A DNA stretch of 63,995 nucleotides, the filler included, from Perkinsus chesapeaki ATCC PRA-425 (Eukaryota; Protista; Perkinsozoa), in NCBI GenBank assembly GCA_013115145.1. It is 18 parts of 18 records of this genome, joined end to end, with 100 filler letters (N's around TTAATTAATTAA, not from the genome) between each part and the next. Parts side by side here need not be neighbours in the genome. Positions count along the whole stretch, not along the records: positions 1 to 2,453 come from JAAPAO010001599.1; positions 2,554 to 4,333 come from JAAPAO010001787.1; positions 4,434 to 6,289 come from JAAPAO010001757.1; positions 6,390 to 10,546 come from JAAPAO010001308.1; positions 10,647 to 11,664 come from JAAPAO010002275.1; positions 11,765 to 13,476 come from JAAPAO010001817.1; positions 13,577 to 16,396 come from JAAPAO010001520.1; positions 16,497 to 19,887 come from JAAPAO010001415.1; 10 more parts are not named here. The stretch is one strand, 5' to 3'. Under the pieces are notes generated by a model. The model had not been told where the DNA came from. It saw nothing but the letters and a program-made list of their open reading frames with translations, and did not search any database. Position 1 is the first letter of the stretch, and every line of letters starts with the position of its first letter. This document shows, in pieces, positions 2,178 through 55,100 of the stretch. The translations under genes and the position numbers were made by a program.

Positions 2178-3562
2178 CCTCAACTATCCTCAACTAGAAG
2201 GTCGCCACGATCACAATGATATTGAACTAGTTCGTAAGCACCCGCTGACAGAGGCATAAAATTAAAGTGACTATTAACTCAACTGAAACGAACCAAATCC
2301 CTTCCTTCCAGGCTTTGATTGAACAACTCAAACCAAATTTGACAAGTAGAAACCGCGCACGCCCAAAACACACCATGTACGGGTAATGGTCCCGATCCAA
2401 GCATCAGTGGTAGGTGTCAAGCAAGCATGAGTCGCTCGCCCGGGTTGTAATTTNNNNNNNNNNNNNNNNNNNNNNNNNNNNNNNNNNNNNNNNNNNNTTA
2501 ATTAATTAANNNNNNNNNNNNNNNNNNNNNNNNNNNNNNNNNNNNNNNNNNNNCGCGTGTTGGATCGGACATGACCGGGCCGGCCACATGAAAGTATCCG
2601 AGTTCTTTGGATCATTTCCATAAACAGGCCTAACAACATCGTGGCTCGCATTAAGTTATACATTAAGTTATACCGAGTCCACTTCAGGGCCTGTAGTGCA
2701 GACAGTTTCCCTTCCAATCTCATTTCAGTGACCGAACCCCGGTCACCGACTACGAAACTGCTGTGACGTGGATTTGGACTGGATCATTTAGTTAAACCAA
2801 GCTTGTCTTTGTTCCACGTGTTTTCGCTGCTCGGATGCTAAACTTCGGAAGTGGTTTCAAGAGTGAAGTTTTCCACATAATAGCATTATTGTTTCTTGAC
2901 ATGTTACATATGGCTCGTTTGGTTAATAGTCAATGACATATCCGACACATGTTCTCTACAAGCCAAATAAACTAAGCCATGTAATTCTTAATAACTTCCG
3001 ATATCCCAACCTGTTCATAGTTAATACTTAACCAAATACGCGCTTCAGGTATGAACGAAATTCGTTCAACGAATGGTCCCAGACAATGGAACATGTCGGC
3101 ATTCACTGTTATCTCTAGTCATTGAGCTGTATTCAAAGAATAGCGGTCACGGTGACGCATTTTGGGCGAAGCCCATTGTGGCCCCCTTGGGATAACTATA
3201 GCGGGACCGAGTTGACGGACGTATGAAATTGGTTGCATCCATTCCCGGGAACCTGTGGCTTATTGCAGGTATGAACCTGACTCGTGAGACTTTATTACGA
3301 TAGTGCTACTATGAGCCATTCAAGTAGGGAGACAATGTGGCTGTCACAGACGGTTTCATCGAGCCCATGCGAGAGATTCTTCATGATGGCAAACATCACA
3401 TCATTGGTATGTTCCCATTGAATGGTTCTTGAGTCACGACGATTGACACGAGATACTTAAGGGTAGAGACTCATCCCATTTTGTCATATATAGATACATT
3501 TCTGCTTCTCATTTACCCTCGAGGACTTCGAAGATATTGGCGATAGTTAACCGGGACTTCTA

Positions 3563-3998
3563 ATGGCCAACGTGAGAAGACGCGCTGGGAGGTTTGGGAA
3601 AGGAAAGGCCTACGCTGATGACAAAAAAAATGTCCTCCGGAAATTGGAATCACTAAAAAAGAGCGAAGGTATCAAGCTTGATGATCACGAATATACAATT
3701 ATGAAGTGCTTGCCGCCTCATGCTCTGATGGAGGTCTGTAAGCGTTGGATTAACCTGATCGAGCACAACCAAGCAACCCTTCCTCTGGGAGTAGCTCTCA
3801 GACAAAAGGGTCTTCGTCAAGCCAAGGCAGCTGCTATCGGTTTGGGAAGGGAGTATGTCACTTGGTTCGAGCTGAAAGCAAAAATTTGCGATACCCCTAT
3901 TAAGCAGAATGGCCATTCTTGCCTGATGCAAAATGAGAACGAGTCACTTAGGCCCCCAGAAGTCCAGCTCGATGTTAATGAGCATTCCAACAATTCAG
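3563..3998 (+). CDS. Hypothetical protein exon
   Basis: Plausible coding ORF ending at a CAG|GTGAG donor near 3998. No confident family. Confidence 0.3.
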
Positions 3999-4433
3999 GT
4001 GAGACGCTAAGATCATTTGGAAAAGATTTAGTATTATCAGCAATGAATGTCTAGTATTTTTATTCATGACAGATGAGGAATGGTTATCATAACTATTGGT
4101 TATGGCTATATCGCATATAATAGGTTATTTCGCTTTATCATCGGATTTACATCATCAATTCTTCCGACTCGTCTAGAAAAGTGTCTAGTAAAAAAATGAA
4201 TGTCTTAGTGCTTAGCATTCAGTATGAGTCTATAGTAGTATAAACGTGTAACGCAGCACTGACCGAAACTTGCTTAGAAGAGCTTTCGTAAGTTCGCTCT
4301 ACAAACTCTATTGATTCAATTCAGGTCCAAGTANNNNNNNNNNNNNNNNNNNNNNNNNNNNNNNNNNNNNNNNNNNNTTAATTAATTAANNNNNNNNNNN
4401 NNNNNNNNNNNNNNNNNNNNNNNNNNNNNNNNN

Positions 4434-6691: not shown

Positions 6692-8965
6692 ATGCCGCAT
6701 AAGCGGAGTCGTGACTGTAAAGCCAGTGCTCGTAGGGCTTATCGTAACAAGAAGAAGTTGAAACGATCCGAGGGATCAATTAACGAGGGTCTGTCTCGTG
6801 AGACCTTCGAAAGCGGGCCCTGGCGGAGGTACTGGGATTTGGCTCTAAAGTGTTGGAGGGAAGAGAAAGAAAAAGTGAAAGCGGCTTATATCGATGGCTC
6901 AGGAGTACCTGAAGTGACCTCACCATTGTCGAATTCTTGCGATATTGACGGTTGGAGAGCACAGCCATTGGTTAAGTGCATTTTAGAGACTGAAGTAGTG
7001 AAGGAGGCAATTGAAAAATTGAAATTGGGAACTAGCCCTCAGGATATTGAAAATATCTTTCATAAGGATGGTAGTGGCATTATATCAAAGATTACGACGG
7101 TATGCGAGAGGTTTTTCAATGTTAATAGAAACAAAAATGATGAGGCTAAGTTCAATTCGAAGTTCGAATTAACGGATCATTGCTGACCAGAGGTTCGAAT
7201 TTCGAACCTCTGGTCAGCAATGATCCGTTATTTCGGTGTCCGTGATGAGGAATTCATTCAGCAGGGAGCTAGGTATGGTTTTCCGGTCGGGATTCTACAA
7301 CCTCTTCCATCCAGTGGGGGTATACATCCTTTGGCAGATGAGGAACAGATTGTGTCTTATGTAGAAGACGGTCCTGAGTGGTCAGGGAATTACCCTTCCG
7401 AGGTGGAAGGATCAGAGGAGATACTTCATAAGTTAATAGAGGGAGAGATAAGTAGAGGGTGGATGGAGATAGTAGACCGGTTTGAATCCGGAGCAAAGCC
7501 GGCTAAGCTGGCTTTGATTCCTAAGAAGAATTTTGATGAAGGGGTTAATGATTGGGCCGATCAGCCTGAGGATGTGTTGAGGAAGTCCTTCAGGGTAATA
7601 GAGGACTATAGAAGGAATGCCTGTAATAATAAGGTTTCCATGAAGGAAACCAACGCGCTGCCGAGCTATCAGAGTTTAGTTCGTTTGTTGGAGCATATAG
7701 TGCAGTTGGAGGCGAAAACTGGCAGTAGTTATATCATCTTCGAAAGCGATATTCAATCGGCGTATAGAACGGTGCCTGTGATTGCGGCAGAGAGAGGATT
7801 TCTTGTTGCGGAGGTGAATTCGGTTAAAGTCAGGCACACCCGATTGCCTATGGGGCTGCGGTCTGGTGCTTACGTTTTCTCGCGGATTTTCTCAACTTTG
7901 CATCGAGTATTAAGGAAAATAATGGACCCGTTGGGGACTGGCGGGTTAAGTTATCTCGATGATAATTGCTGGTTTATCCCAAAATGTATAAAAGAAGAAG
8001 CTATTTGTATTTTGCTTCTTGTGCCAGGGGCATGTGGGGTAGATTACGCCTGGGAGAAAATACATGTCGATGGAAATAATACCTTTGGGGGGTTCACCAT
8101 AACAAGAATGAATCTCGGAGGGTTTGTGATTAGGGTACCGCCGCGTAAGGAGGAGAAAGTGGTGCAGCAGATAACGTCCATTTTGGAGAGCGGGATGGTG
8201 AAGGCCGAGACGCTACAGAGTCTCATTGGTCGTCTCTTGTTTTATACGCAGATGTGTCCTATTTATAGAGAGGGACTATCTCATTTATATGGTCTATCTA
8301 CAGTTATGAATAAAAAGGGCTTGTACAAGGTCAAATGTTCCGAGAGGACTGCTGACTGTTTGACGAGATGGCTGCAAGTAGTATCATCTAACTTCGAGAG
8401 GGTGATAAAGGCTGTGGAGTGTGGGGGCCGTTCCGGGCGTCAAGAGGATTTGGAAGGTTTGATCCTAGCTGACGCCTCCACTATCGCCTTAGGGTGTATC
8501 GTTATTCGTGTGACTGGTACGAGTGAGCCGGGTGCGTATAGTAGACTGCTAATTGAGGAATTGAAAGAGATCGAAGAGACCAATGTACATGCAAGAACGA
8601 GCAGTAATATGGTATCGTTGGAACTTACTGCAACACTTATGGGTGTATTGCTAGCAAAGAAGATGGGCATGAATCCCTCAAAAATGTTAGTCCTATCGGA
8701 TTCGAAGTCGGGTATCGGCGCTCTGAAGAAAGGTTTTTCAGCGAAGATTGGCCCAGCTAGACTGGTTGCTGTGATTACACAAATAATGAGCGATGGAATA
8801 CAGGTGTCAGATTTGCCCAATGACAGGGCATATCACATTAAAGGGTTGTTAAATGTCGATGCTGATAAGATCTCTCGTGATGTGGGCTATGCACCACCTG
8901 GGCTGAAGAGAATGTATGTTTCTGTCGCAGAAGTGAAAGAAGTGTTAAATGGAGGGAAGTTCTAA
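6692..8965 (+). pseudogene. pol: pol (reverse transcriptase + RNase H) interrupted by one in-frame TGA inside a 45-bp palindromic insertion
   Basis: RT motifs DIQSAYRTVPV, LPMGLRSG, YLDD. RNase H motifs ADAS, LELTA, LSDS, HIKGLLNVDADKISR. ORFs 6641-7186 and 7220-8965 share a frame and are separated only by TGA 7184-7186. Confidence 0.85.
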
Positions 8966-11664: not shown

Positions 11665-11764
11665 NNNNNNNNNNNNNNNNNNNNNNNNNNNNNNNNNNNN
11701 NNNNNNNNTTAATTAATTAANNNNNNNNNNNNNNNNNNNNNNNNNNNNNNNNNNNNNNNNNNNN

Positions 11765-13476
11765 GTGATATAGCGACTAGATGTTCTAAGTGTGGCAATC
11801 CCAACCACTCTTCTGATCTGTGCGAGGTCCCCACTAAGTCCTTGAACTGTCAAAGATGTCTAAAGTCAGGACATCTAGCTTATGTGTGCCCGGCTTCTAA
11901 GCCTGTGGACCCCGACTTGATCAACCAGAAATCTAAGGGCAAGACTGCTAAGTCTAATAAGCAGAAGTTCAAGGCAGGTAATCGACACCGGCCTGGTAAA
12001 CCCTCTACTACCCGGCCTGGTCCATCGACACCTTCTACTAATGCTCAAGTGGTCGACGAGTCCAACAAGGCCAATACTATTGGATCATCTTCAGAGTCTG
12101 AAGTTCAGACCCTAACTCTACTATATGGGTCTCTCCCCTTAGTACTGCTGACCTCAACTCCAACTCTAATGCACTCCATACTGATAATGGTGTTCATTCT
12201 TCTAACACGTCGTCTAGATCCTCTAAGATCTCTATGGTCGTTGGCGATCTATCTGTTTGCGGTGTTGTGCGCCCTGTCCTCTATGACACTGGTGCTGACG
12301 TCTCTCTAATTGCCATTGGGACTCTCCGCAAGATCACCAATAAGCGTCTATGCTTTAATGACCCTTCTATTCAAGGACGTGTTAATGTTGCTAATGGTTC
12401 GAGTCTTTCTATCTTAGGGAAGGTCGAGCTAGAGGTTGGCTATGGCAATACGTTTACTAAGGATGCCTTTCTATTGGCTTCTGATGATTTGAGTACTCCT
12501 GTTATTGTTGGATGCTCTACTATGGCCAAGTTGCGTACCACTATATCTATATCGCCCGATGGGATCTATGTTAGACTAGGAGATCGCCCCCCTCAAGTCT
12601 CTACGGTCGAAGGCCCTGAGCCTCGTCTATCTCTGCGCGATATGGATTGGCTACGTAAGGTCGCTGTTATGCACGTGAGTCACGTTGTGTCTCTATCATC
12701 GGTATCTACTTCCAGACCTAGGCCATCGATATCTATCAAGCCTAGTAGCCTAGATTTCTCCTATGGCGTGGAAGGTGGGAGCTATGTGCTCTATGATACC
12801 TTCAATGATGATATGGCTATCCACCCTGATCTTCCGGTGTCTATAGCTATTAGCTCTACTACGTGCGTTAATACTGTTACTGACTCTGATACTATCTCTA
12901 CTTGTGATTTACTTCCACCTTGGCAAGCTATCTCTAGAGAGTGGGTCAGTGATAAGTCGGCTCCCCTAGGTCGCGTGTCTGTCGAAGTTCCGTGGCGGTC
13001 TCTAGAACGTCCTGCTTTCAACTTCCACTATGCGGCTAAACGTGGCCTGGCTTCTATAGCTCGCCTCGATTCTAAGCAGCAGTCAATGTTCGAGGACGCC
13101 CTCTCTCAACTGGTTGGCAAGGGCTTCTGCTCTATCGTCTGTGATCTGAGATCAACCGGTCTCAAGAAGCCCACCCGAGCTATGTGTCAACAAGCCTGGT
13201 CTACTCTTGTTAAGGGGACGGCCTCTGAAGGCTCTAGTGTCCCTCTAGCGGAGCACTATACTCCTTCCCATTTAGTGTACCGACCTTCTCATCCTACTAC
13301 GCCTTGTCGAATTGTTTTCGATTTTCGAGATCTCAATCGATTTTCTAATCGAGGTGGTTTTCCCCAAAACCATCTAGCTGGTTGTCTCCTAGCTATTAGA
13401 TCTTACCAGCACTTTATTGCTGGTGATCTCTCTAAGGCTTTCTGTAGGATGCAGTCTAATACTAGGGATGTTCCCT
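11765..13476 (+). mobile_element. LTR retrotransposon gag-pol fragment, BEL/Pao-like, with a frameshift near 12100
   Basis: Two knuckles (CSKCGNPNHSSDLC, CQRCLKSGHLAYVC) and aspartic protease LYDTGA. RT start HYTPSHLVYRPSHPTTPCRIVFD...GDLSKAF resembles the BEL/Pao YLPHHxV..TTKxRIVFD..ADIEKAF pattern. Confidence 0.75.
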
Positions 13477-19887: not shown

Positions 19888-20659
19888 NNNNNNNNNNNNN
19901 NNNNNNNNNNNNNNNNNNNNNNNNNNNNNNNTTAATTAATTAANNNNNNNNNNNNNNNNNNNNNNNNNNNNNNNNNNNNNNNNNNNNAACGGTTCTAGCT
20001 ACAGCTGTCACCAGGTGATTGCAGCGCCTCTCCCAACCCCAGCGTCTATGGGATTTCCCTATGATAGAATCAAATAATGCTCGTTCACAGCACATCAAAT
20101 CGCTTGAAGGAGATTTTTCTGATAGAGAAGAATGACTCTTTGAGAATCAGTGGACTCAGTCCACTGGACTGAGCCGGCTAACGGTGATGCCTAGTTGATC
20201 AGAATAACATGTTGTCCATGTTACCGAATCGGTCATATTGATCATATGATGAGACATAATCATGGGACTTCGTCAGACACGAAACAAATTGTATCGTGAA
20301 CTCTCGAGACTGTTGCGCGTTGTCTCCGAGACAACTGATCAACTGAGTTCTGCTCACACCTTTCAAATCACACTGTATGCGTTGTCTGTCACAAGAGAAT
20401 GCAGACGAGACCGAAGAGAGGAACGGCGAAGCGGAAGTATATTATGACTCACAATTTGTAAGTACGTCTTTAAGCTACGGTTTTTTGCCTTGTGAAATCG
20501 GTTACATACCTTTTAATTGATGTAGTAACTTACTGAACCCCATTAATACAACATACCGTATTTCTTCCGATTATCGAAGTTCGATATTACGTGTTTGATC
20601 ATTGTTTTTTGTCAGTTCAGTAACTGGGATACATAAAGTGCAGCAATCATATGGTATGA

Positions 20660-20889: not shown

Positions 20890-23800
20890 ATGCCCTGAGA
20901 AAGCGTCAAAGGCGCGAAAATGGTGACTTGAGGAGAGCTTTCCGTGGGACAACGGGATGTTAGCTGGCTCGCACCATATGTATCAAAAAACGTAGGCAAG
21001 TTTAAGGAGACAAATAAAAATATGAAATATCGGAAATTTCCGGAAATGCTGTAGTTCGCAATAAGTCCACCCTATAATCAGGTTTACCGTTCCAAACTGA
21101 GTANNNNNNNNNNNNNNNNNNNNNNNNNNNNNNNNNNNNNNNNNNNNTTAATTAATTAANNNNNNNNNNNNNNNNNNNNNNNNNNNNNNNNNNNNNNNNN
21201 NNNACTCATGAAACTGTACGCACTATAAGCTTGTCTTTGCCTCCAGCTGACGGCGCTGATCGGCCTCTAGGACTTTGCGTAATTACTCTATCTCAAACAT
21301 TGATTGCTAATCCAAACAGTCTGCTGCTGCTACAAAACATCCTGCTACCGCTAACACTTAGCTGCTGCTAGCAGTCACCCTCCGGGTGATAACAGCTGCT
21401 TCGCAGCTGTTTCACGCATACGGTATGCGGTATACCTGCCGTGATCGGTATCGCCCCGGTTACGTAGTGAGCAATTAGTATTCACTATTACAGGGTCATA
21501 TTCTATCGCTACTTCTTCTCAAACTCTTTTCCCTTATTATAGTGACCGCATTATGAAGACCCGAGTTGTGATAGTAACCTTTCGCAGGTATTATTCAACA
21601 ACGCGTTAGCATGAAGCATTGCACGACCACTTACTCGCAACTTGTAAGTATTACCTTACTAGCTGCATAACTGTACGTTAAGCGTTATTTGTATACGCAT
21701 TGACACAACATACATTGACACAATACCGTACTGTTGGCACGAAACTTAAAATAAAGTGGCTTAATAAAATTGTCAATGCTCGTTGCTGAGGCTTTCATTT
21801 AGCGCTCCGTTATTCATTGGAACTTGAATTGTCGCATAAAAACCACGCTCGGTAACTGCAGCGTTCTCACTAGTGGCCTCAACTCGAATGTACTTGGCCC
21901 TAGGATTAGCTTCCAGGACCGTTCTAGGGAGTAGGACAGGTTTGCAACCATTAGGAGTGATACTGTCGCTGTAGAAGGGATCATTCCCGAGGTAGGCAGT
22001 GAACTTCTTGGTCTCTTCGAAGTTTGAGGTAAGCTTAATCATATGCGACCCGCGTGTCTTGCTGTAGCGAATGTAAACCAGCTTGAGTTTAGCCGAACGC
22101 GTACTACGCAAGGAAATATTGTGGGCTGTTTTACCTAAAAAGCAGGTCTAGAAAGTTACAGTTCACATGAAACCACATGGAACATACTGCCCTACTCTCA
22201 CCACTATATCTCGGTCCGGCCGGTGATTTCTTCGACCCTTTCAATTGGTTTTCGGGTGCCGGGCTTTGCTTTCCAGATTTTCTGGACTTGTCCGCCAGTA
22301 CCTTATCGTAAATCAAAAAGCACCAACAAGCTCACTACTTCTCGGTAATGTGATCTTATCACATTCTTTTTCTTGGCTTTTTCTTGGGGAATACAACTCT
22401 CTGGCAGCGTGGCACAAGAGTCCTATGTAGAAAGTTCATCGTCGTTTGACTTCTATCATTCCTACAGAATCCACGGACCGGCAAAACTCACTATCATCGG
22501 CATTGCTGTCGGTTTCGGAAGTTGACAAGCCGAAATCCTGTGAAACACTCCATCCGTAGTTTCACTACAAACGTACGCTCTCAGTTTGATTATTGTTCGA
22601 CTCTCTATCTTTTTTTATTAACTTTTTCAGGTCCACTATATCCTCCTCAAGGTTAGAGCGCATGCTGGCCTCAGCCACCGACTGAAGACGTAGTGAATAA
22701 TATTTCCGCTCATAATGAGGTGTATACTATCAATTAGTTGTTTACTATGGATTCCCCCCTTACATCCTCAAAATGCTGCCTGCTATCGGCTTCTAACCGC
22801 TCCAAGTCTGATTCTAGCCGGCTCACGTTATTTACCAGTTTCGTGTTGGTCTGCTTGAGTTTTTTGTTCGCATTGGTCTGAGCGACATCATGCTGATCTC
22901 CATCTCTGTTATAACCTACTAGTGTTGCACATTGGTCAATACTACTGTTGAGCATCTGTTTCACATCAGCAAGCTGAAGTGAAAGCGTGAAACCATTTGC
23001 TGCGTTCAACCGTATTACTTTGTTTTCCAAACTAGAAACTTTTTCTCGCAACTGGTTATTTTCTTCTCCCTAAAACCAAGATATTCCAAACATGGCTAGC
23101 AACCAAATCAAGACTTTGTTGATATTATTGAAATATAATATTTCAGATATTACCATTCTTTTCATAGCAGCACGCCTCTGTTTTCCCCGTGTATCATGCT
23201 TCTTGCGTTCTTCAATCATTATAACCGAGGAATAATTGACTGAAATATGCAGTAATGTAGTACACATCGTGTTACACGGCGAAGTGAGGCTCAGCTAACT
23301 TGCCTGGCCACCGTTGCCAGACGACGAACTCCGATCGATTATATGGGCGTGCGCTGCTTGCCACCGCTCATGATGCGTTGATTAACAAAAAATACTGCTT
23401 AATATACTACACCAAAATTAAATCGTTTTTCAATAAGCCTAGGGTGACGTTGAAAACGGATTCTATTTTTAAAACTCCTTCAATCGTTTTAAATACTTTT
23501 CAAATTTAAAAAACTTCACCGGGAAAATACTATAACCGGTGTAAATACTATAATTTGTATTAGTTTTTACTTATTACTTCGACTCTAACCATGTTGCGCC
23601 AAGTAGCGAATCGACATCTTTGGCACCGTGTTAATGCTACGCGCCATATAATATAGCTCATATCGACTTCGACTACGTGGTTTTACTCGTGGTGTCACCA
23701 ACTTGGTGGTTACACATCCGAAGCCGCCTGTTTCGTATACGGAGAAGCATTGTTGTACGAAGAGTCTGTAGGATGTGGATGGATACGAAGTCCGTATTAC

Positions 23801-24086
23801 GGAGTAATAGAGGAAAGCACAGTGAAGGTCCGGCTTATGTGACCAGACGTCACTGAACGCAAGCGTTTCGAAGCTTTTCTACTAGGGATTCCCTGGAAAC
23901 CCATGTATTATTACATCAATCTTCAATTAAAATGTAGTTACTAGATTTTAGACTTTTTCGTTTTGTGATGAGAAGCATGAATCGATTCTTAACACTGCTC
24001 TGTGCAAATGAATAGTATCAAATCAAATATCAAATCGTACATCGCTTCAATATTCTAGGCGGTATTCTGTCGTATCTACTGAGGTT

Positions 24087-25555: not shown

Positions 25556-25591
25556 CTTAAACCAAGATGGCTACCGTAGCCAGGCTACGGA
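25556..25591 (-). ncRNA. Degenerate Perkinsus/dinoflagellate-type spliced-leader sequence carrying a palindromic scar
   Basis: After collapsing the scar at 25568-25589 it reads TCCGTAGCCATCTTGGTTTAAG|GT. The Perkinsus SL as I recall it is ACCGTAGCCATCTTGGCTCAAG (19/22 match; positions 2-16 exact). Confidence 0.6.
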
Positions 25592-29100: not shown

Positions 29101-29307
29101 CTATGCGGAACGCAAGTGAGGTACGATTATCTACACGATAACCACAGTAAGTAAGATTATCACCGATCGTGTAGATACTACCCGCAAGATCGCCAGATCA
29201 GGAATGCGCGTAGAGGTCGCCCATCATCAAGGAGGAATCCGGCAGATGATAGATATAGACACCAGAATGGACGTGGTAGCATTCACAGATTGATTGAAAA
29301 AGTGTAA
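26165..29307 (+). CDS. Intron-rich Mutator-like (MULE) transposase with SWIM zinc finger; boundaries approximate
   Basis: N-terminal C-x4-C...H finger, PLYMDAQNK (D about 27155), VHDAHQGAIRAC..LPG (D about 27476), CYYH (27586-27597), SWIM CTCKGWRDWGCCGH (29041-29082), then RRGRP. Catalytic E not located. Confidence 0.72.
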
Positions 29308-35600: not shown

Positions 35601-35700
35601 GCTGCTGGATTGGGGTTGGACGCGACGCCTGAATCCCAAACATGAACCATGTTACATGGTAGCCAGTATTGAATATTCAAGAAAGGTGAATTGTTGTTCC
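32608..35700 (-). CDS. DEAD-box RNA helicase (multi-exon; may extend 5' to about 37400)
   Basis: PTPIQ and AQTGTG(K) (about 35540-35630), APTRELA (about 35110), ATPGRL, LVLDEAD (34608-34619), [21 protein letters not shown]. Resembles DDX3/Dbp-type helicases. Confidence 0.9.
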
Positions 35701-38700
35701 TACGCAATCTAGACGACGTGAGCCCTGTGTGACACGTTCTCAGTGGAAACTAAGAGTATATGCAATGGCAGCGAGCTGCCAGCTCCGGCATTGCTAGGAC
35801 CAACGGCCAATCATGAGCCAAACTCAACATGGATTGGTCACAAGAATGCGACAGCAAAGTGTGAAGGCCACTGTTCTAAGTCAGTGGCTAGTTACAGGTT
35901 TCTCTTTTTCGAGGAAACAGTGGTAGCGAGGGAAAAATTATCCCCGTACCGGGTTTTCGCGGAACCAAGGACTCTATTACACCACCAAGGCTCCGATTTC
36001 CGAGACGTTTTTGAAACGCTGCGTTTCAAACCCAATGGGTTAATTGAATCGACCCGAAATGACTCAATTCAGACTTCCATTTCTGGCAGACTCGGACTGA
36101 GTGGTAGGCGTCTTTCATGTCTATAACGGTTTAGCCGGTGCCCTTGCTGGGCATAGCGCTTAGGAAGCTGTCTAAAGTTGGGGTGAAATCAGTCCAACCA
36201 ATGGGAGCACCGTAACAAGTGCTTTCACTATGATCAAGGACCAGGCCAGCCCGTTGGTTCTTCCGCTGAGTTTGAACTAGTTGGATTTCCTCTTCCCGTT
36301 GAGGTATATGGATCCCTAGTGGCAGCTCCTTGTTACGGAAGAAAACTTCGGCATAACGGTAATAGTCTAGACAGAAGGCATATCGGATATAGCCAAGCTC
36401 TACGGCTATCCTAGCTTAGCTCAGCTCCATTCAGCTGAGCTAGGATGGAATACCTCCCTACACAGTGTGGAATTCATAAGTGCTTTCTTCGATCTCTGAA
36501 GATCCCCGTGTATCAGACTAATCGACTGATAGTATAGAGATGACATATTCTACCGAATCGAGTTGATGGGTAGAATCGCGAGACTCATAAGGCATGAAGT
36601 TCAGTTAGCCGAGTTCAGGTTACCGAACTGGATTACAAAATGGCCCGGCTCGTCGCCGACGAGTCGCCGGTCCATGGGTGACCGTCTTGAAGCACTCAAT
36701 GATCAGCAGCCGACTTCACTAGGCTTTATTAATGACGAAGGCGTCACTTTGATATCCAGTTTTCCAAGCTGTGAAAGAACGGTATATCACGACCGTTATG
36801 AAGAGCATTGCCTAGCTAGCTGCCATAGTTTGTACAAAGCCTAGTGAACCAAGATACCAAATAGATGAGGTTTTATATTATAAGTTGGAGGTGACTCACC
36901 CCCGACCCCTCCAATGCCTTGACAACACTACTCAATAATATTCCACGCTTCTCGGCTTCTTCCCAAGTACTCACGCGAGAGAGCCTAAAGTAAAGTCGTA
37001 ACCAACCTTACAGTATCCATCATTACTTCTCCTTCTCCTCATTAGTGAAAGAGTCTGTACCTTTCACTGTACAAGGGGCATCAAACTCCAGTAGTCCACC
37101 GGCCTCGCGCCGAATTACCTGACAAGAGTTGGCCTACAGAACGTACATTTCAGCTGGGGCCCCGCCTCGATTCCCAAATGCTCGGCTCTTCGGGATCCTC
37201 AGAACAGCCTGTTCAGATCACGGCTATACGAGATAACCCTGTTCTCAAAGAGAGAAGCTTCGATAGTAATAGGTCCGAGTCATCCGACACAGCATGATAA
37301 TTCAGAGGCGGATAGCTAGTCAAGTTCTGCCCTACCGGCTCCTCTGGAGTCACGGACTCGCTTTCTCGCTCCGAAGAACTGCCTTCGTCGTCTTCTGACC
37401 CCCGCACATCCTCGCTGCCATAATCTGGACTACGGCTGCGCCTTCGCGAGTACCTTCAGCAATCATCAGGCAAGATATTCGTGTGCATTCAAACTATTAG
37501 TTTATAGTACAGAAAGACTACGAAATACACATCCATGATTACGAAATACGCATCAATTTCTCATCACTAGAAATCATTCAATGTCCGCATGCTAAGGTCA
37601 TCGCAAAAGTATTTAGCCATTCTCAAGTATATCGAGACGACAGGCCATCTTATCTCGGACTATACCAAATAACCTTCATATCTACTCTGTCTTTACAAGA
37701 AGAGAGGCCCTATTTCGTTAGCAGATAGTTTAATAACCGTTTTGGTCGTGGTTAACAAGAATGGGAAAAGGCTTATTTTAGAGTAGTATTCTGAGAATAC
37801 AAAAGTGCTCGATATATCACATCCGCCTCACCTCGGACTGGATCGCGATCGTGACCGAGACCGCACACGTAATCGCACAGGGGTATCTTCTGCCTCTTCG
37901 GCCTGAACATCGGCCTGTCCTTCCGTCAACCAAGAAAAATGCCTACTTGATAGCCACCACGGCAATTCCAGCCGGTTCCCCATTCATCCCCGCGTATGGA
38001 CCATGCTGTGGTACTATTAGCATGGTCGAAACTCTGAAGAGGGAGGAAATCAGTTTGACTCTGAGGGAAAAATGAAGCCTCCTTGCTTCCTGCAGAGTTC
38101 GGCACCAAACGATAAAATTATAACATTTTTCCGTTTTGGCCTATCAAAACCGAACACACTGTACAGAGGTGCACGCTGTCTCTCTCCGTACTACTCCATC
38201 TTTCCAGTATTCCTCCCCAACCGTGCGCTGCCGCCGGTCGGGCTCCTGCTGCTGCTGTTGCTCTGGTCTATACGATCCCGTAACCCTGAGCGCAGCACAA
38301 TAGGACCTCAATCGTCGTCGATGGAACTATTACCGTGAAGAAGTAGATGTATCCGCTTTAAACTCATATCGGTTATCATCATCCTTTTTATACCTATCGG
38401 AGGCGCTAGTGAATACTATGAGCATAAACAGCAGTACCACAGTATGTATGCATACTATATTCTATAAATAGTAGTAGTCCATAAACTATGTTCGTAAACT
38501 ATAAATTATACATATATACTATAAAATACTAATAGATATCAGAAGCTAATAGATACAATACACTCATTTTCTAACAATCCGTGCGGTTTTTAGATGATTG
38601 AATGAAACAGCGATTTCTGCATTATCCCCACATTCGCTGTGGGCTCCACTCTGGGGACCCGTAGACCCACCCAACACACTCAAACCCACTCAAACACCAG

Positions 38701-43860: not shown

Positions 43861-46800
43861 CTAGCGTCGAGAAAAGTGGCTGATAGCCAACTGTTGCTGT
43901 CAACCAAATCAACCTAAGATACGTCCAATAATGATATATCAACCTGTATGGGGCTGTATACAGTGCTTCAACGGACACCGTGTCACATGAGAAGTCAAGA
44001 GAGATCCATGGTAAGTCTTTATTAATGGCGAATCAACAACCGTTATGATATTTTCTGCCCTCGGAGTTACACAAAGGGACACACACAGAACTATGGACTG
44101 CCGAACTTCCCAACTTCCGGACAGCACAAGTACAATATTACACCTTTTCAAGCGAAGATACTGCGGTAAGTATTACATGTATTACATTGCCGTGGTTCAT
44201 GATAAAACACCAAGCTTCAGTAGGCCCGTTATTTCGCAGCACCCTGGACTGCTATTATAGCGGAAATGCATCCAAACGAATTATTCAACAAAACGTACTA
44301 TCAAGGACATTGCTCGATTCTATATAGAAAAGAGTTTGATAAAAATAACACCCTTTATTCGGTTATTACCGCTCGTTCAATAATAGTCCTTTTTCCCTTA
44401 TCCATCAACTCTCTTTCAGCCTCGGTAATGGCATATCTTATATCATCAGCAACCTCCCTCATTTTAGCGTCATCAAAGGCAGTATCATTAGCCCAACCGT
44501 TTGCCATATCAATCGAATTGGGCATTAAAAAGTGTTATGAGAATCTACAGAAAATGATATCGAACGAGATAATTATAATAAGACGGGGAATGTGGGAAAG
44601 GCAACAAACTGAGCTAGGAAGAATCTTGCAAGGATCTAGCGACGTCCGAGTTGTTCAATAAACTCAACAATGACAGATATTTGAGGAACGAACCCTGAGA
44701 TTCAATTGAGACAGTCTCACAAGATACATGCGTTATTTGACCGCGCGCCGCAAAATTAAATCCCGCCTCCTCACCACCAAATACACGTCTTACGCTATTG
44801 CTGCTCTCTTTGGTACACTATGATTGCTCAACACGACTTCCTCATCGAAGCTGGCTACACTTATGATAAGAAAACTAGTAATAAGTGGGGATACTGAACG
44901 GCGTTATAGTTCCTATCATCAATTCCCATAGCAATGCAATATTATCGTTTAACAATTAATGATCAGAAAATAGCAGTATTAATGGAAATATTTACCTTAT
45001 TTATTAACGTGTTAGTTATTAGTACATATTTATACAGTATTAGTTTCACAGTACAGTTTTTATTTATTACATTATTAATTCACATCTCGAGTTATACTTG
45101 GATAGCTTTTCACAAAATGGTGGAGCCAATTTCGTAGATTGAATAATCGATCTTCACTGTTTTGCCGAGACAGATCGGCTGATAAATGGCTGAATGTATC
45201 ATCATTATAATGCATTGGTATTCCCAATGGGAACACCATATCAATACTCGAGTCGATGGTATCCACCAGCAGTAATGAGCGCCGCGATAAATCACATACC
45301 CCACTCTTCGTTGCAATACTCGGGGGCATGTCCCACTATGGCAGGCTCGAGTCATGAGCCCAGTTAAAGATAGATTTTAGCGACCTTGCGGTAGGGTACA
45401 GTATACATCCCGAAAAACTGTCATTGCTGTACTATCTTAGTGATAAATTTATGGTTGTATATTTCACTACATTCTAATATCATTTGAAAACATGCCATTA
45501 ACCATTCTAGTGAACTCGGTTTGCACACTCCACTCAGCCATGACTTTCTACTTTCATAACATGCTCCATTTTTACGCTTCCATCACCCGAACGCCTCAAT
45601 TAGTTCGTTAAATCGTTACTATTGTCAGACCGTTACTTCATGTCCGGTGAGCCTAGCTGGGAGCTCGACAACCAGAAGACCCGCGGTCGCTGGTAACACA
45701 CAACAGCTATATGATATACTATAGTAGTTGTGTCAGGCAAGGAGCCTTCCCTGCGTCCAATGTAGAGGAGTTCAAGCAGGAGGAGGATCGATGGGTTAAA
45801 GAGCAGATGGAAAAGGCCAAGGAGTAATATACGACAGTTTCTGTTTTGGGGAGGGATGTGAAATGAATAAACTAATGAAGTATCAAACCTTACCCCTTGC
45901 TTTTTACTTTTAAATCAATATGAACTCCCACGTTTCTAGGGCCTTCACCAGGCAGACGGGAAGGGCTTTATTATTTCGGTTTTTGTTATTAACAATTTCT
46001 TCTTACTTCACTTGACTAAGTCGACTGTTATGTATTATTAGGCGCAAGAATCACCACAAGTCGAAGACTGAGGAAAGTACTTAAGAATGCACCTTACTAA
46101 CCGTTAACGTCTCTTCCTTACCATACAGGAAACTTGTGTTGAAAAGTATCGGTTATTGACAAGCTTATCTGAACAAGCATCTTATACTAGCTTGCACCGC
46201 CGCCCGATAAAGTGGAAAAATATTCAAACTAAACTATTTTGTTCCGAAATTACGGCTGATGTAAGTAGATAAACGAACCGACTTAAGATGGGAAGGAAGT
46301 GCACTACAGTACGGCTGCAAGAGTCATGCTACAAGTGCTAGAAATGGTATGCTCGTTAAAAGATTGATTTATTAACTTGAAAGGCTAAGAAATGATGAAC
46401 GGATAGCAACGAGGTCATCATTTACAACTGGAGCGTCAAGAGGCACTTGTGACAGGAAACGATTAAATAATTACCAGCGACTAATAGAACTCGTGAGACT
46501 TGGTAGTGTCACATGTACGTGATTATTCGTATCATATCCGCTTCATCAGCACTATAGAGTTAAATTATTTAACGTATGGTTTACTATAGAAGCATTTATA
46601 TCTGATTAAATTATCTTTTTATATAATATAGTAAGATAGTATAATAAGATGCTGGTCCGTCGCAGTGACCAAACTATAACGCGAAACTCAGGGTGCTTCA
46701 CTGCTTACCTGGTAAGTTGGTAAGGCTTACCAACTGTTAGTCCAACAGCTCCTTACTGTTGTCTATATTGCAACCCACCTCCGCATCAATGGTTGATGCG

Positions 46801-47731
46801 TAAGGAGGATTGATGATCGATTCCACCCATTGCTAGCCTCATGATCAGCGCACCTGTACTATACAAATAAATATTTATTTCTACGTTTCTTCTGCGAAAA
46901 GAGAGGTCTTTTCGCATATTATGCGACTTGAGCGGTAACATAAGTTAATACATCGCAAGGAGATGCTTGCTTTTCTCACTGATCAGCACTAACATCATAC
47001 TCAGCCTAACTCGGAGTTAGTAACTCCATCGGTTTAACAGCATGGGTTGCGGAAGACACTGTACTAGATAGACGGCATACGGGTGAATCCTCCGGCCCCG
47101 AGGATTAAGTCTGAAAATCGTCCGGTAGGCCAGTTTTTTTGCAGTCCCGGGAGACCACTGTCCGGGTTTTTTACTATTTGCTGCAATATCCGATTCATTA
47201 GGAAATGTAGTTTACAGATGAGCTGGTAGGTTCTCGCATCTTCGCATCACACTCGTTAGTTAATGAGGGTTCAATGTTGGGCGTGCGTGTAAAAACTTTC
47301 ATTCGGATTTCGTGATACTCCTTCGCACCGAAGATCTAGTACAAACAATATGGAGTCTCTGATTATTACAGGCCGTAATATGCCTACTGCCACAATAAGT
47401 CTTAGACTTGAAGTCTACCCTTATCTGGACTACAGCATTTCCAGGTCAATTTAATTATTTACCCGTATTAGAAATAACTTGCTATGTGATCATGCGGTCA
47501 TAACCAAGAACGGTCACGCACGCAAGCGCACCTCTTCGTTGTCACGCTCATCGCTTTCCACGTTTGTCATTCCTGTGGTACGCTCTCGCCATTCTATCAT
47601 ATGATTAGTTCTCGCATGGAATTCATGGATTTAAGATCTGCACGTATTAAGCGTATTATACGCTGCGTATAGCCGAGCATTCTCGTTGTGATCATTTTTA
47701 GACTCGCTTCCACGTTGGTGTTTCCTGTGTA

Positions 47732-49376
47732 ATGAAGGTCATCGCGTGCACCATATTCACGGTTGCGTTGAGCGCCTCAAACGCCCCAGCTGAACCCGCT
47801 TGGTGTAACAGCCACGAAGCCAACGAAGTCTACCCACTACGAGCATATCTACCTACTAATGATCGTGGCGTCCGAACGATGGTCGACTTTGCCTCCGATG
47901 GCCGCGGTAACTGGTATGTATCCGGTCAATCGAGTTTAATCGGTTGGTACCGAGTTTGGTGTATAAACTTTTCGGGAAAAGAGAGCTACGTGGAATTCGA
48001 TGTGCACGCGGAAGCAATTGACGTATTCTACGCTCCGCCATCTGGAACATACGTCTTTGTCATTGTTAACAACGAGATTCGTATGTACGGGACCAGGGGC
48101 AATACCCTCCCTCCACTTTACCTTGAACATCGCGTTATCGAGAAAGGTGATGATGATCACAAGTTCACTGACCTCGCGTTTGATAATTATACCGAATCCC
48201 TTTCCGTAACTGATGAAAAGACTAATCAAGTATACCATTATTTTCCTTTTAGACCTCATGTTCCGAAAAAAACAGCTGCTGGGAACCTCGATGGTCTCGC
48301 TATTGATGATGAGACTCATCTGTACCGCCCATTAGCCGTTAAGTTTGCTGCGGGTGATCTCTACATTTTACAAGGCCCCGAGAGGGAAGCTCGACTCGTA
48401 CGCTGGACACCTTTCCAGCCAAATAGGACTTATATGTATGACTTCCCGGTGGAGGGTCGGCTAGGCTTTGAGGTGTCGGATGTAAGCCCGGACTACATCT
48501 ATTACAGGAGTGGTGGTGACTCCGTATATAAGCGCTGCTCTAACTGGTCCTGTAGTGATACCACTCTTATAGCCGGTGGTTGTGGTCGTTGCCATAATGA
48601 CAATCAGCTGGTCAACCGTGGGTCAGGTGCTCTCAAAATGGACGCATCTGGTAGGCTGATGATATGGGACTTCAAAGGTAACAGGTTCGTAATGTGGGAA
48701 GATAGGGCCTTAAATTGCTCTGCCTACTCGGGCCTCCCGGCCACTACAGCCCCGGGAAAAGTCACATGGAAGGACAAAGTATCGTACAATGCTGAATATG
48801 ATGTATGTACAATGGCTCCTACGGATATCGTTAATCTGCATATTTTTTACCGTTTTGGCGCTTGGGCTAAGTGCGGCCCTTCCAGAGATTTCGAGGAAGT
48901 AAACTACCTCCCAAGTAGTCTACCACTGTCCGAAATACACGACAAACAATTGTGTATCGAGTATTTCGAGAAATTGGGCTTCACTCCTGGAGAGTCAGTG
49001 GACTATGCAAGAAGAGCTATATGCAACCTTGAAACATGTAGGTGTGGAGCCGGTCTAAGTTGCAGCGCATTTTTTATAAACACTGTCGTGTGTGTTACCG
49101 GACTTGTGAACTTATCTTGACAGTTTTCTTTCTCAGTTCTCCAACATACAGGACCTACTACAACAACAACAACGATAACCGCTGCTCCTCCGACCACAAC
49201 AGAAGTGTCGAAGGAAGTTACGTGGGAGGACCGAGTCATATATAGTGCTCCCCTGTGTCTTCTTGTAACCACTGATAACATGGTTATCTTTATTCATCCC
49301 GTTAACCTATCTGTACCCGGTAAACATAACAAGGACTGGTGCATTGAGTATTTTAAACAGTGGAAATTAATTTCTT
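47732..49376 (+). CDS. Secreted protein: signal peptide, NHL/beta-propeller-like region, Cys-containing C-terminal domain and a downstream second copy
   Basis: Hydrophobic N-terminus MKVIACTIFTVALSA; blade-like segments (FTDLAFD..SLSVTD, LYRPLAVKF..GDLYIL). 3' structure beyond 49040 uncertain. Confidence 0.6.
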
Positions 49377-51466
49377 AGCAGTCGCTGGAATATATAAGGG
49401 AGGCTACTTGCGGCGCTAATTGATGTAAGTATGGACTCGGGCATAGTTGTACCGCTTCGTGGTAGTTCCTACGTTTTATGCTTGTCCAACTCGCACAAGC
49501 AATGATTTCTAACACACTTTCAAACTTACCATGATAATTGTCTGTCCCAGTCTCCCACACAACATAGCCGACCATCATAGCAGTTCCCATCTCTCACGAT
49601 GTTAAGTGATGATTGAGTGTGATACCTGTATCTCGCCGATTCCTTCGATGTTGCGGATTTGAAATCCGGGATTTTATATTACAGAATGTTCTTAAATAGT
49701 GTTATTTTAAATTCATTACACTAATAGAGTAATCTACTCTTATCAATCGGTTCAAGACAATCCTAATTACATTCTTGGATTGACAGTTTAACCGATAACG
49801 GTATTGAGATTGAGTTAAAAGAGTTGGTTTAAACAATGGGGTATCTAGTCCTATGAATACTCACTTCGCCTGGACCTTACATATCGCTACACAAATTGAG
49901 CTGTTCATTGACCAGCCCAAAGTTATTGATAGCAGCCTCATTCGTTGAGTAGATCCTGACGCGTCAATCGTGTCCAAAAGGGGAATACTACAGCATTTCC
50001 CGGTCATGTTTCCGACTCGCGCACTCTTATATCCGACTGGCGCGCATCAAATATCCGGANNNNNNNNNNNNNNNNNNNNNNNNNNNNNNNNNNNNNNNNN
50101 NNNTTAATTAATTAANNNNNNNNNNNNNNNNNNNNNNNNNNNNNNNNNNNNNNNNNNNNGTTCCTTTTCTGGCGTCGGCTTCAGAATCACGGTGTCAACT
50201 GTGGCCTTGCCACCATGGTGTCAAACCGTAAGGCTTTTTCGCTCCAATCGCGTCTTTTCTATATATGTCATATAAGTTTTATATGCTTCGGTGGAACCGC
50301 TAAAGTCTAATGTTCCTCGTATTGACGTCGATGTTGTGTACTGGCGATTACTTCACGAATGTTGGCTGTTGAGTTCATGAAGCTGAGTTAATGTATGAGA
50401 ACAGAGATTCTAACAGACACTTAACCTGCTTAAAATAGTAATTTCGAATCAGAACCTCTGATCATGGCACGATCAAGCCATTATCAGGAATACTCGAATC
50501 AAATTGAACGGCTTTTCAATACGTATCTAGTTCGTCCCTGAGAGCATCAAGCGGCGGCGACGAGCGAAGCTTTAACTCCGACTCCGCAACCGACGGATTT
50601 TTCTCGCGCTTGGGGAGCGCAAATTCGTCTCGGAACGTTCAGTTTCTTATATTTCGCCAGCTTGGAAACCTCGAAGGCGAACTAGATAATGGACTGGTGT
50701 AGATAGCACTCAGTATTTAACTACTGACTGCAGACTATAACGGCACGCATTGTGCAGCACACTAAAGAGGACGAATAAGAACTCCTAGAGGAAATATCTG
50801 CAGCATATCCCGCGGTGAAAAGGTAACGCAAGTGGTGCTGTATGATTGTAAACCTTATTTGCCTCGCGAACATAGCATTTCCGGCTAGATCAACTGGCTG
50901 CCCAGCTGTTAATTTCCCGCTGTTGCGATGCATGGCGTGTTTACGCCACGGTGCCACGTAAAGGGGCTCAGCGCGGCCCAAGGGATTGGGTTGTCCAATC
51001 TCAGATCCTTTCTGGATCCATTTCGTCAATGAATAAACTCAGAGCCAGTAGGATCTCATGGGAAAATCCCTCTCCAATATGCTGTCGAGTGCAACAAACC
51101 AAAGTACTCGAACCTAGTCATGAGGGCCAACCTACGACCCTAATGCTTGCTGTCGAGCGACGAACATAGCTCGGCAGCCGAGCAAAGCTCTCGGGCGCTT
51201 CGCCACGCTTGAAGATGAAGTGTCACAGAGACTCAGACAGACTACGTATTCACAGACTAGTGCACTGATCATCATCCAGAAAGCCTCGGAGGTTTAACCT
51301 CCTCGATGAGGGACGCTTAGGCCCACCAAGAAAAAGATACAAGGAAAAGGGTTACACTAAATATCATTTTCGCTTCTATTGTTTTAAAATTACTCAAAAT
51401 AGGTTTCGCAGTAATGCTGGACATTCTTGAGAGAGTGAAGAACACGTTGTATCATATCGATATAGC

Positions 51467-52146
51467 CTATCTTGCTATCACCTTCGCCACAGCTTTACCT
51501 GCATCTACTCGTCCGAATGGAAGGGCAAACTTTCGAGAGAAATCCTTGAGACCTTTCTGGGAAGTGCCCTTGAGGATCTTCTTGATATCACGAGGCTTTA
51601 GACCCGGATTTACACTGTAGAGCATGGCTGCCACACCAGCAACAATGGCAGACGCTGGAGACGTACCAAGCATTGTTGTAAAGCCACCATCATTCCCGGT
51701 CGTTATAATATTGCCTGGGGCAGCAATGTCCACGTAAGTCCCGAAGTTCGAGAAATAAGTCGTTGTCATTTTTGAATGTTCTGTCGCACCGATACACAAC
51801 ATTCCATCGCATTGTTGAGTGAGAGCACAAGGGTAACGCTTCTCCGTAGGAATATCTTTGCCTTCATTCCCAGCAGGTACAATTATAAGAATACCAGCTT
51901 GGTTTGTTTGCTTAATCTTGTCGGCCAAGTAGGGCTCAATCGTAGGTCCGGAGATAGCCATCAATATAACCTTTATATCTTCCGCTCCCCTGTTGCTAAT
52001 GACATAGTCTATGGCAGCCGTCAAAGTCGAATCGGAAGGATCATCACCCACGCAAATCGGCATGATATTAACGAGGTCCATAACACCTGCTATACCCAAC
52101 GTGTTGTTGATAGTAGCACCTAACACCCCGGCCATTTCAGTACCAT
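51467..52146 (-). CDS. Subtilisin-like serine protease (S8), C-terminal part
   Basis: (H)GTEMAG at the contig edge, oxyanion PAGNEG, VDIAAPG, catalytic GTSPAS. Confidence 0.92.
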
Positions 52147-55100
52147 NNNNNNNNNNNNNNNNNNNNNNNNNNNNNNNNNNNNNNNNNNNNTTAATTAATT
52201 AANNNNNNNNNNNNNNNNNNNNNNNNNNNNNNNNNNNNNNNNNNNNTAAACAGATGTACAGTCTACTCGAATCATTGAAATAGCATCATCATGGAATGCA
52301 ATCTTCATCTGATTCTACATGGCGTAACGCCACTGGCGTTGTCTTTTATTGGCATATGTTGGCAGATTCGTCATGCGAAGTGTGGTTTCTGGCTTAGTCA
52401 CAGGACCCGGCCAGCGCGCGGCGTGGCAACAAGCGAGGGCTTATCGAACTCGGGTAAGTACTAAGTGAGTACTGTATCCTAGACAGTGAGGCATGATCGC
52501 CAAGGTAGAGGGGTCCCCAACTGTGGCTGAACGCAACACGAGTTTCAAACTCGAAGTTTGTTTGTTCATACTGAATAGACCTACTACCCCCTACTACCTA
52601 TCAGACCTGAATACCGAACTATTCTGCAAACACTTCTACTAGCACATAATGTACAATATTACTATATAATATAAAGTATACATACATATAGTCGTGATTT
52701 GAACTCGGCGAATCCGCAGCAATTCATCCTCCCAACGGGACGAGGTCCCATGTGGAACACAAGCACACAAGAACTTCTTGCCAACAAGCTGTTTTTCCTG
52801 ATATGCTGCCGTTTTGACCCATTGCACCTGTCCTTGCTCCCTCTTGCTGTAAGTACTTCACGCTGCGCGGGACTGCACGCACCGATTCCAGGGCCCATCT
52901 CGACACCGAGGCTCTTTCATCAGATTACTGACTAAGCTTCAGGCCCTCAGACTGAGGGCCTCAGTGGCGAGGGCTTCTCAATATCGTACAATCTTGCGAA
53001 GGGCACGGTACTTTTCGTTGGAATAACCTATTCCTAATTGTAGTTGAACTCACCGAATCACGGCCCGTGATTCACGGGTATAGACGATGTATCGAGTACT
53101 AGTTCTGTACTTCCCCGACCGATGTATCACGCAATTTTCTAATCACCCACTCATTCTGCACTGTACCAGCGCCAGTGAGCTGCCTGCACAGTGTGTGCCT
53201 TATGTGGGTCACTGTGCACTCTGCATAGTACCTAGTCTATGCGAGCCGTTACTCGGTCGGTATGTCACTCGGTCGGTACTCAGTTCAATTCATGCTAGCG
53301 CCGCACGTTCTGCACAGTACCTAGCGCCCAGATCCTGGCCTGTATGAGCCACTTCATTGGTGTAGCCCTTTACGCATGCAGCGTAGTACTCTGAGAGTAC
53401 TGACTAGCCTCTCTGAGGAGCCCGCTTAGTTTGAGATCAAATCAATGCTATCAATTATGAGCTGGGTATCAGTCCCTCTACAGTGTAGAGTATAAACTCA
53501 GCCGCTGTGTCACAACTGGATTTAGGCCCGTGTCACGCTGCGTAGTCACAAAGTTTGTGACTAACTCCGTTTAACGGAGATTCAATCTTGTGGAAAAACT
53601 GCATCTGTTCTCAATCTGTCTCCGGCGACTCTTCTCAGTTTATCTGCGGCGGCCAGCTCAGACTATACACACAGGTCCGTACTGACGCTGCCACCGCGCA
53701 GATCTACTTGGGCTTACCGACCCTTAGGCATTCAGGCCTCCTCAAGCTATGAAGCGCCACCGCCGTTTCATCGTCGGACTCACGGTCCTGCTCATCGGCG
53801 TGAGTTGCGCAGGCTGAGCGCATAAAGCTGATACTCTTGACTCAAATAAACAGGTTCCGACCACTAGGCGCATGTTATTCACAAGGTCTATCCGAGGTCT
53901 ATGCGGCCTCTCGCTGGAAGAGTTATCAGTGATAAATGCATCAATCAATTGCCTCAAATTGAGGCCCTCAATTGAACTAAGCCAATATTAGCCTATCGTG
54001 ACTACGAGTCACTGACTAGCTGCCGGTCAAACGTCAGTTCGAACCAATTTGATCCTCCAGCTTCGAAATTCTCGGAGCTTATTGTTAATAAGTCATTTAG
54101 AAGACGATAGCAGGGTCTTCGAATAGCGTTAGGTTAAGCGCTACTGTGACAGTAGCATGCAGTATCTTCTATTCAACTCTCATTAGGGTGCTCCAACACA
54201 GAGGAAGTACCGTAGGGCAAATCCACGCACGTGATGGGCGCTGGTTAAAGTTATCACTACTCAGGTTAGACCATCATGGCCATCCTGCTATACTAGCACT
54301 ACTATAACTTTTTAAATACCCATCTCAAACGGTGCGAGACGATCTCTTGGCGGCTAGATAATGTTTGTATGAATGTTTGGGAACCCGTGAGTCAGATATC
54401 AGCACTCTCTTTTGTTCGAGAGTTTAATATTTCAATCGCTTTGGTGATTGTATGACGCAACCTGCGTCTACTGGACGATGTATGGCGACCAGCCCAGATC
54501 ATACACAGATCCGTACCGGTTCTCGCCAATTGCTCTCTTTTTGAGCCATAAAACTTCGATTCTTGTATCGATCCCCATCGCACAGGAGGCAAATCCTTCT
54601 CGACTCATTGCAGAGCCGTCAAGAGCTACCTGTCACTATTTGGTGACCTCATGGTCGAACCAGGCTCAGCTCGAGACTGGCCCGACCAACACATCGCATT
54701 TGTTATGAATCTTCAGTTAGAAGATGTCCCTATGGAGGGTGCTTAAATGTAGCGCAAATCCAATATCTTTGTGTCGTGCATCGTGTCTGAAATTATTTGG
54801 GGTGTGCGTGCCGGTGCAATCGAATTGAGCATCCAACGCCAAAGGGAGTCGCACGCATGCCCAACGGTCACTGATGTTTTTGTCAATAGTCTCACAGCGA
54901 ACAACCGTTTTACCGTTCTGCGGGCATTAAACGACTGTCGAGATCGTCAGTGATATCATGCATAATTTTCGTCAGCACGTGCAGCGTAGATCGAAAGATA
55001 TTTGCATTTTTGTGCGCAGATTTCCCAGAAGTTCTGATTTGTACAGATGTCTGTCACAGACTGCCTGTGGGAACTTGGCAAGTTCAACTTGCCATCAACC

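Follow-up and report, generated by a model that had tools for sequence, protein, structure and literature searches.

The analysed window of Perkinsus chesapeaki DNA comprises 62.4 kb of bases from 19 short contigs, with N-linkers between them. The window contains an intron-rich gene for a Mutator-like (MULE) transposase, a DEAD-box helicase gene, a DIRS-like retroelement, a Dada-like element and several repeats. Scattered among these is a stereotyped 22-bp scar in which an 8-mer S, different from site to site, is followed through its first seven letters by its own reverse complement and then by its last seven letters. A sequence-only reading had taken this scar for a probable footprint of hairpin-type transposon excision, and the analysis described here addresses that proposal.

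The motif was scanned in its general form, that is, letters 1 to n − 1 of an n-mer S, the reverse complement of S and letters 2 to n of S (n = 3–14), with mismatches tallied per site. At n = 8 there were 15 perfect matches, 36 with at most one mismatch and 48 with at most two. Exclusion of one match (23123) that overlaps the site at 23130 left 47 sites, with zero (15 sites), one (21) or two (11) mismatches. No perfect match was obtained at n = 5–7 or n = 9–14 in the window, and n = 9 gave no site at one mismatch or fewer. Ten local shuffles yielded no site with up to one mismatch and 0 to 1 with up to two. As a control of real DNA, we scanned 80 unrelated metagenome loci (721 kb), which contained no perfect copy, one copy with one mismatch and six with two. 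The predicted sharp peak at n = 8 was therefore borne out within the window. All 11 perfect copies listed by the sequence-only reading were recovered, together with four that it lacked (219, 12089, 47650 and 55071); six of its seven one-mismatch copies stood, whereas the seventh (53998) has two mismatches. Its density of one scar per 3–4 kb was an underestimate: the measured value, 0.75 per kb (range 0–3.4 per kb by contig), is about three times higher. The DNA added by the scars (47 × 14 bp) amounts to ~1% of the window and up to ~5% of the densest contig.

The geometry of the scar is strict. With arms of at least 7, 75 palindromes had a centre of 1 nt where ~4 were expected, and 59 of these 75 were parts of 22-mers. 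Centres of 0 nt (5 versus ~5) and 2 nt (2 versus ~2) were at chance; other centre sizes and arm lengths formed no separate class, the even-centre counts stemming from a TA run at the window start. Nineteen sites have a 20-bp core free of mismatches. Their two outer bases complement the far centre in 15 and 18 cases, respectively (chance ~1/4 each), as proposed earlier for a centre that complements the base next to the element. The next base outward paired in just 7 of 19 and 7 of 19 cases, and the unit thus ends at 22 bp. In a p + q test against 20 shuffles, the total p + q = 8 was found 14 times in the window and never in the shuffles; it was the sole enriched total (one low-complexity site was filtered out). 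An excess at gap 0 (39 versus 15.8) is due to simple tandem duplication and does not count as evidence. Among the 94 half-sites, 41 had T at s2/A at s7 (background 27%, p = 5.5 × 10−4) and 61 had C/G at s1/s8 (p = 9 × 10−5). TA at s4–s5 occurred in only three of the 47 scars.

Variant scars and placement along the window

A separate search was made for two odd palindromes, spaced up to 150 bp apart, whose outer ends fit one n-mer. It returned 21 standard sites and three others, all at n = 8; long-armed variants were found neither at n = 6, 7, 9 or 10 nor in five shuffles. One variant (1072..1132; centres 1094/1125) has S = TGTCCATA at both ends and a left arm of 22 bp, 15 of which lie beyond S in the flank. 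Another (7154..7230; centres 7162/7200) has S = ATTCGAAC at both ends, a right arm of 30 bp and a net gain of 45 bp. In the third (46703..46735; centres 46710/46725, 15 apart) the ends fit an 8-mer with one mismatch, and both inverted copies are retained side by side, unannealed. Flank is copied up to 23 bp beyond S in the long-armed scars, and arms that copy flank beyond S are what is expected of a covalently closed flank opened far from its tip.

The scar at 7162/7200 is perfect. It lies in the reverse transcriptase (RT) frame of a DIRS-like retroelement (6390–10546, plus strand) that encodes RT and a tyrosine recombinase, and its inverted part places an in-frame TGA at 7184–7186. Since this perfect scar stops and breaks an otherwise open RT frame, the process ran recently.

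Three perfect standard scars came from the motif scan at 219..240 (S = CATATAAG), 3053..3074 (S = GAACGAAT) and 12089..12110 (S = CTTCAGAC), the last being the only scar within a long open reading frame (ORF). Three more are found in 20150..20586 (20150 perfect; 20441 and 20565 with two mismatches) and three in 21415..23804 (21415 and 23130 with one mismatch, 23783 with two). Six stand 5′ of the MULE-like gene in 24667..25480 (25118, 25143 and 25459 perfect; 24667, 25250 and 25346 with one mismatch), followed by a perfect copy at 25568..25589 (S = TGGCTACG) and a copy with one mismatch at 25958..25979 (S = CTCTCTCG). The MULE-like gene itself (26165..29427, plus strand; PF10551, E = 1 × 10−5, slightly below the curated cut-off) encloses four scars in 26430..28546 (26430, 28065, 28303 and 28525), and another with one mismatch (29428..29449, S = CCAACTAT) follows directly 3′ of its stop codon. 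Two scars in 29764..30797 are on two contigs (29764 with one mismatch, 30776 perfect), and the four in 35639..37800 (35639, 36013, 36649 and 37779) occupy introns of the helicase gene, which runs on the minus strand. Five lie in 47006..51302 (47006 and 47650 perfect; 47396, 49654 and 51281 with one mismatch). Eleven lie in 52319..55092, nine of them in a repeat at 52320–54811; 52944, 53057, 53951 and 55071 are perfect, 52319, 52539 and 53379 have one mismatch, and 52767, 53476, 53998 and 55048 have two. The last three are in 55659..60011 (55659 and 59990 with two mismatches; 58820 with one, inside a GT..AG stretch).

The scars avoid coding frames. Only one of the 47 falls in the 16.2 kb of long ORFs, where 12.2 were expected, a comparison that is partly circular in that a scar itself breaks the frame. 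This one, at 12089, sits at the switch from a gag-like frame (11713–12309) to a protease frame (12102–13532), and the frame offset (389 mod 3) equals 14 mod 3, that is, 2. A 472-codon ORF at 47702–49120 is free of scars. All eight scars within the two homolog-mapped genes, four in each, are outside homolog-supported exons. In the helicase gene, 35639, 36013 and 36649 share an intron of ~1.27 kb and 37779 is in one of ~375 bp. In the MULE-like gene the exons in question are backed by P. olseni and paralog proteins; the automatic model P0001 places part of the 26430 stretch in an exon, but the other homologs do not support this. Two exons match the P. chesapeaki proteins P0001 (MULE domain) and P0008 (DEAD-box helicase) with 94–100% identity over the mapped exons, and relatives from P. 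olseni and P. marinus rank next.

Several further observations concern the scars and their surroundings. Neighbouring scars touch or overlap, 1–3 bp apart or with a common arm, at 23123–23151, 25118–25164, 25250–25296, 52937–52965 and 55048–55092; these may result from re-insertion into or beside an older scar. Lone odd palindromes with arms of 9–15 bp and an unmatched second end (26297–26315, 53543–53579 and 58267–58297) are probably one-sided footprints. The MULE-like gene is mostly single-copy by depth, has homologs in P. olseni and carries scars in introns only; selection may therefore be acting on it, or it may have been domesticated. The repeat at 52320–54811 is non-coding, has ~20–25 near-identical copies elsewhere and no Pfam match. 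Its right end (54623–54811) reaches ~115× single-copy depth and might represent a terminus that non-autonomous elements have in common. A second repeat (25377–25710) reaches up to ~20× single-copy depth, begins with TGT and has a sharp left boundary at 25376/25377. The Dada-like element (16562–19301, minus strand; DUF6729 in two frames) has TAGCTC at both ends and lies inside a split tRNA-Ile-like gene, the insertion pattern reported for Dada-tI of P. marinus (PMC3706591). Short tandem arrays are present at contig ends (11345–11664, 24078–24418 and 62306–62520).

Scarred and scar-free copies

Contigs from five DNA runs of two studies, representing at most two samples, were placed on the window at 80% likeness and covered 25 of the 47 sites; most scar sites are single-copy DNA with no second allele. 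A helicase alignment search returned distant relatives alone (28–38% identity) and served as a negative control, and no metagenome contig matched a pattern of 30 bases taken from the 25.5-kb repeat.

Paralogs in four of four runs had 14-bp deletions at 25959 and 29429 that correspond exactly to the scars at 25958 and 29428, and the remainder after the deletion is S in both cases. At 25568, the minus-14 form was read from contig ends before 25583 in runs X1 (one contig) and X5 (two contigs). The empty 8-mer at 52767 and 53951 was likewise read from contig ends, and the contigs there fell 15 letters short of the window sequence. In total, five scars have 14-bp-shorter paralogs, two as explicit deletions and three from contig ends and gap counts, which agrees with the earlier claim of a net gain of 14 bp over an empty 8-mer. 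Two different paralogs, from runs X3 and X5, lack the scar at 25958. Because two separate paralogs lack 25958 and two lack 52767, the simpler history is that these scars were gained by the window's copy.

Other scars are shared. The scar at 52944 is common to other copies of the ~20–25-copy repeat (X5 record 8, gap-free); 53379 and 53998 are apparently shared among the repeat copies too, on weaker evidence. The repeat family therefore has both shared and copy-specific scars, so that scars formed both before and after its spread. Self-comparison of the window revealed one diverged paralog pair (1846–2177 and 20544–20889, 69% identity), whose decay is too advanced for the empty site to be assessed cleanly; the scar at 20565 is apparently shared, in decayed form, with the paralog near 1866. 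A 15-bp gap near 20646 is a possible old scar and was not counted. Similarly, 29 letters deleted in X1 record 1 could arithmetically comprise the scars at 52319 and 52539 and were not counted.

The scars were unchanged in contigs of both studies. In 24430–30088, 13 of 14 scars were bridged with zero differences by contigs from the two studies, and the 14th had only 23 letters on one of its flanks. X1 record 1 and X2 record 9 each spanned 24667..25480 with zero differences, and 55048 and 55071 were also bridged without difference by contigs of both studies.

Probable excision route and competing explanations

Each 22-mer replaces an 8-bp site with a net gain of 14 bp and is, in our judgement, probably the excision footprint of a cut-and-paste transposon of the hAT superfamily. 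Excision of the hairpin type in general has a very high probability; if it is accepted, there is a good probability that the enzyme was a hAT transposase. The n = 8 peak, the empty 8-mer and the depletion in coding frames all support the footprint proposal from which the work started, and hAT fits better than a Mutator-like enzyme. From the scar geometry, with its peak at n = 8 only, we infer an 8-bp target duplication. Insertion would first duplicate 8 bp to give S–element–S. On excision, both flanks would be closed into hairpins, each with the complement of the element-adjacent base at its tip, the left flank reading s1..s7–s8′–s7′.. and the right flank being its mirror image. Among hAT enzymes, Hermes makes its first nick one base into the flank. 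Host enzymes would then open or unwind the hairpins at least 8 nt from the tip, leaving 3′ tails that start with the reverse complement of S and with S; these could pair over 8 nt and be trimmed and ligated. The uniformity of the scar would follow because the identical 22-mer results wherever the hairpins are opened, provided that this is at least 8 nt from the tip. Tails that joined at another short match would give the same 8-bp ends with longer arms, as seen in three cases. One dominant repair outcome, as claimed earlier, accordingly describes the 22-mer but not an exclusive product, given the three long-armed variants. Introns, spacers and dead repeats retain the scars, which decay there by point mutation; selection would explain their persistence outside coding frames, because +14 bp shifts a reading frame.

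The closest known parallel is Ac/Ds, whose footprints in plants, Saccharomyces cerevisiae and Candida albicans form palindromes around the complement of the element-adjacent base, arise by hairpin opening and often have microhomology at the joint, with arms of up to 20 nt in budding yeast (PMC5873905). The products of Ac/Ds are spread at each site, however, and mostly have short arms (≤ 3 nt in Candida; PMC5873905), whereas in Perkinsus there is one +14 product with full 8-nt annealing, which makes up the bulk of the long odd palindromes and is fixed at the density given above. The scar behaves like an Ac/Ds footprint in its testable marks, and hAT membership is likely. Enzymes of this superfamily make the first cut in the non-transferred strand, and the flank ends up as a hairpin (PMC6900584); Hermes makes 8-bp duplications at nTnnnnAn (PMC10368747). 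The scars would share the flank hairpin and the 8-bp duplication with Hermes and TcBuster (PMC6900584, PMC10368747, PMC3499496), and their weak T2/A7 bias leans towards the Hermes preference, but they are known only as footprints. The MULE Muta1 also forms flank hairpins, and its duplication channels repair to one main outcome (PMC5499845, PMC5225508). That outcome in yeast is, in contrast, the precise loss of one copy with net change 0, and Muta1 makes 8- or 9-bp duplications without target preference (PMC5225508). P nucleotides of V(D)J recombination are likewise palindromic additions from opened flank hairpins, but the RAG cut falls precisely at the border and would give even palindromes, which are not enriched here, and there is no duplication to anneal (PMC6900584).

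A number of results weigh against a hAT footprint. Among the matches listed for the 25 covered sites there was no S–element–S allele, and contig joints that skip 390, 740, 177 and 45 bp have neither a terminal inverted repeat (TIR) nor an 8-bp duplication. No TIR pair with an 8-bp duplication was found in any window contig. No hAT domain was detected in 15 ORFs, four six-frame regions and three proteins; the six-frame Pfam scans (1–2453, 2554–4333, 21204–24077 and 52247–55469) returned no family. The only candidate enzyme class found in the window is the MULE-like gene. The T2/A7 bias is modest (44%), and the short Ac-type form, p + q = 2, was at chance (3 versus 2.35 in shuffles) in a test that detects short forms poorly. 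Footprints elsewhere are diverse: those of Ac/Ds in Candida fell into 28 types among 128 clones, mostly short (PMC5873905), and those of TcBuster in human cells were small, varied indels (PMC3499496). Finally, P. marinus is scored as having Ku70, Ku80 and Lig4 (3/3; PMC6635534 Table S1). Since these genes are kept, classical joining might have been expected to dominate.

The same route could have been served by a different enzyme, a MULE or another C/DxxH-type DDE transposase with an 8-bp duplication, which we consider unlikely. The window does contain the MULE-like gene with its Perkinsus homologs, scarred in its introns, and the flank hairpins (PMC5499845) and 8- or 9-bp duplications (PMC5225508) of Muta1 would suit the scar. 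Muta1 yields both 8 and 9, however, whereas no n = 9 class with up to one mismatch is present here; it has no target preference, whereas the scars have a base bias; and its excision in yeast is precise in ~90% of cases when the target-site duplication (TSD) is present (PMC5225508). Because of the strict 8 and the target bias, hAT is favoured over a Muta1-type enzyme. The presence of the Dada-like element and the report of Merlin (8–9-bp TSD) in P. marinus (PMC8101967) also speak for this alternative. Dada was rejected as the enzyme on account of its 6–7-bp duplications in small RNA genes (PMC3706591). For Merlin, the relevant sections of PMC8101967 describe no flank hairpin, and the P. marinus Merlin ORFs are reported there without TIRs or TSDs.

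Explanations without transposon excision are much less probable. The template could have been switched twice during replication or the repair of a break, with 8 nt copied backwards before the return; the product would be shaped like a micro inverted triplication, and among the matches listed none showed an element at the sites compared. Such switching requires local homology and gives varied lengths, whereas the 8 is fixed and sequence-independent here, the tip is strictly 1 nt and even the long-armed forms retain 8-bp ends; we regard it as very improbable. The uniform product and the high density would also suit programmed excision or a domesticated transposase that forms hairpins, and a domesticated hAT of this kind is said to exist in yeast. 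Yet the scars have been inherited, some are common to paralogs and their ages differ, as judged from the three mismatch classes, and a prior 8-bp duplication, hence integration, is required, which makes this explanation, if anything, slightly less probable still. The least probable is a library or assembly artefact in the form of fold-back chimeras. The window may derive from any of the five runs, for which no library type is recorded, and contigs rather than raw reads were compared. An artefact was rejected in view of the bridging by both studies' contigs, the avoidance of exons, the presence or absence in paralogs that is consistent across all runs, and the point decay (15, 21 and 11 sites at 0, 1 and 2 mismatches), which speaks against library chimeras.

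A deficit of non-homologous end joining as the cause of the uniform product is unsupported and was rejected: loss of classical end joining is not the obvious cause, because Ku70, Ku80 and Lig4 are all scored present in P. marinus (PMC6635534). MRE11, RAD50 and the POLA/POLQ group are scored present as well, and Artemis is not among the entries; in its accessible part, PMC11936186 does not mention Perkinsus. Slow or distant opening of the hairpins by the host is a better guess. We see an even chance that Perkinsus uses a near-fixed repair route, consisting of distant hairpin opening and annealing of the inverted duplication, despite its Ku/Lig4 genes.

Significance for Perkinsus genomes

The chemistry of hairpin excision is known; the uniformity and density of the scars we did not find in print. 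Our literature search, mostly of titles, yielded no account of such scars in Perkinsus or of one fixed footprint on a genome scale, and older tables may figure a 22-bp product. Old DNA transposon excisions usually go unseen in a genome, since the footprints are short and varied. If the proposed origin is correct, nearly every past excision of transposons with 8-bp duplications would be readable in Perkinsus as a countable, datable fossil map, of the order of 10^4 scars at this density, and introns and spacers would have been lengthened in 14-bp steps. The original 8-bp target can be recovered from each scar, which would give excision counts, target preference and age from sequence alone, and the presence or absence of individual scars could provide polarised markers for comparing Perkinsus strains and repeat copies. 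They also point to an unusual handling of hairpin ends in the Perkinsus lineage, which branches near the dinoflagellates and apicomplexans.

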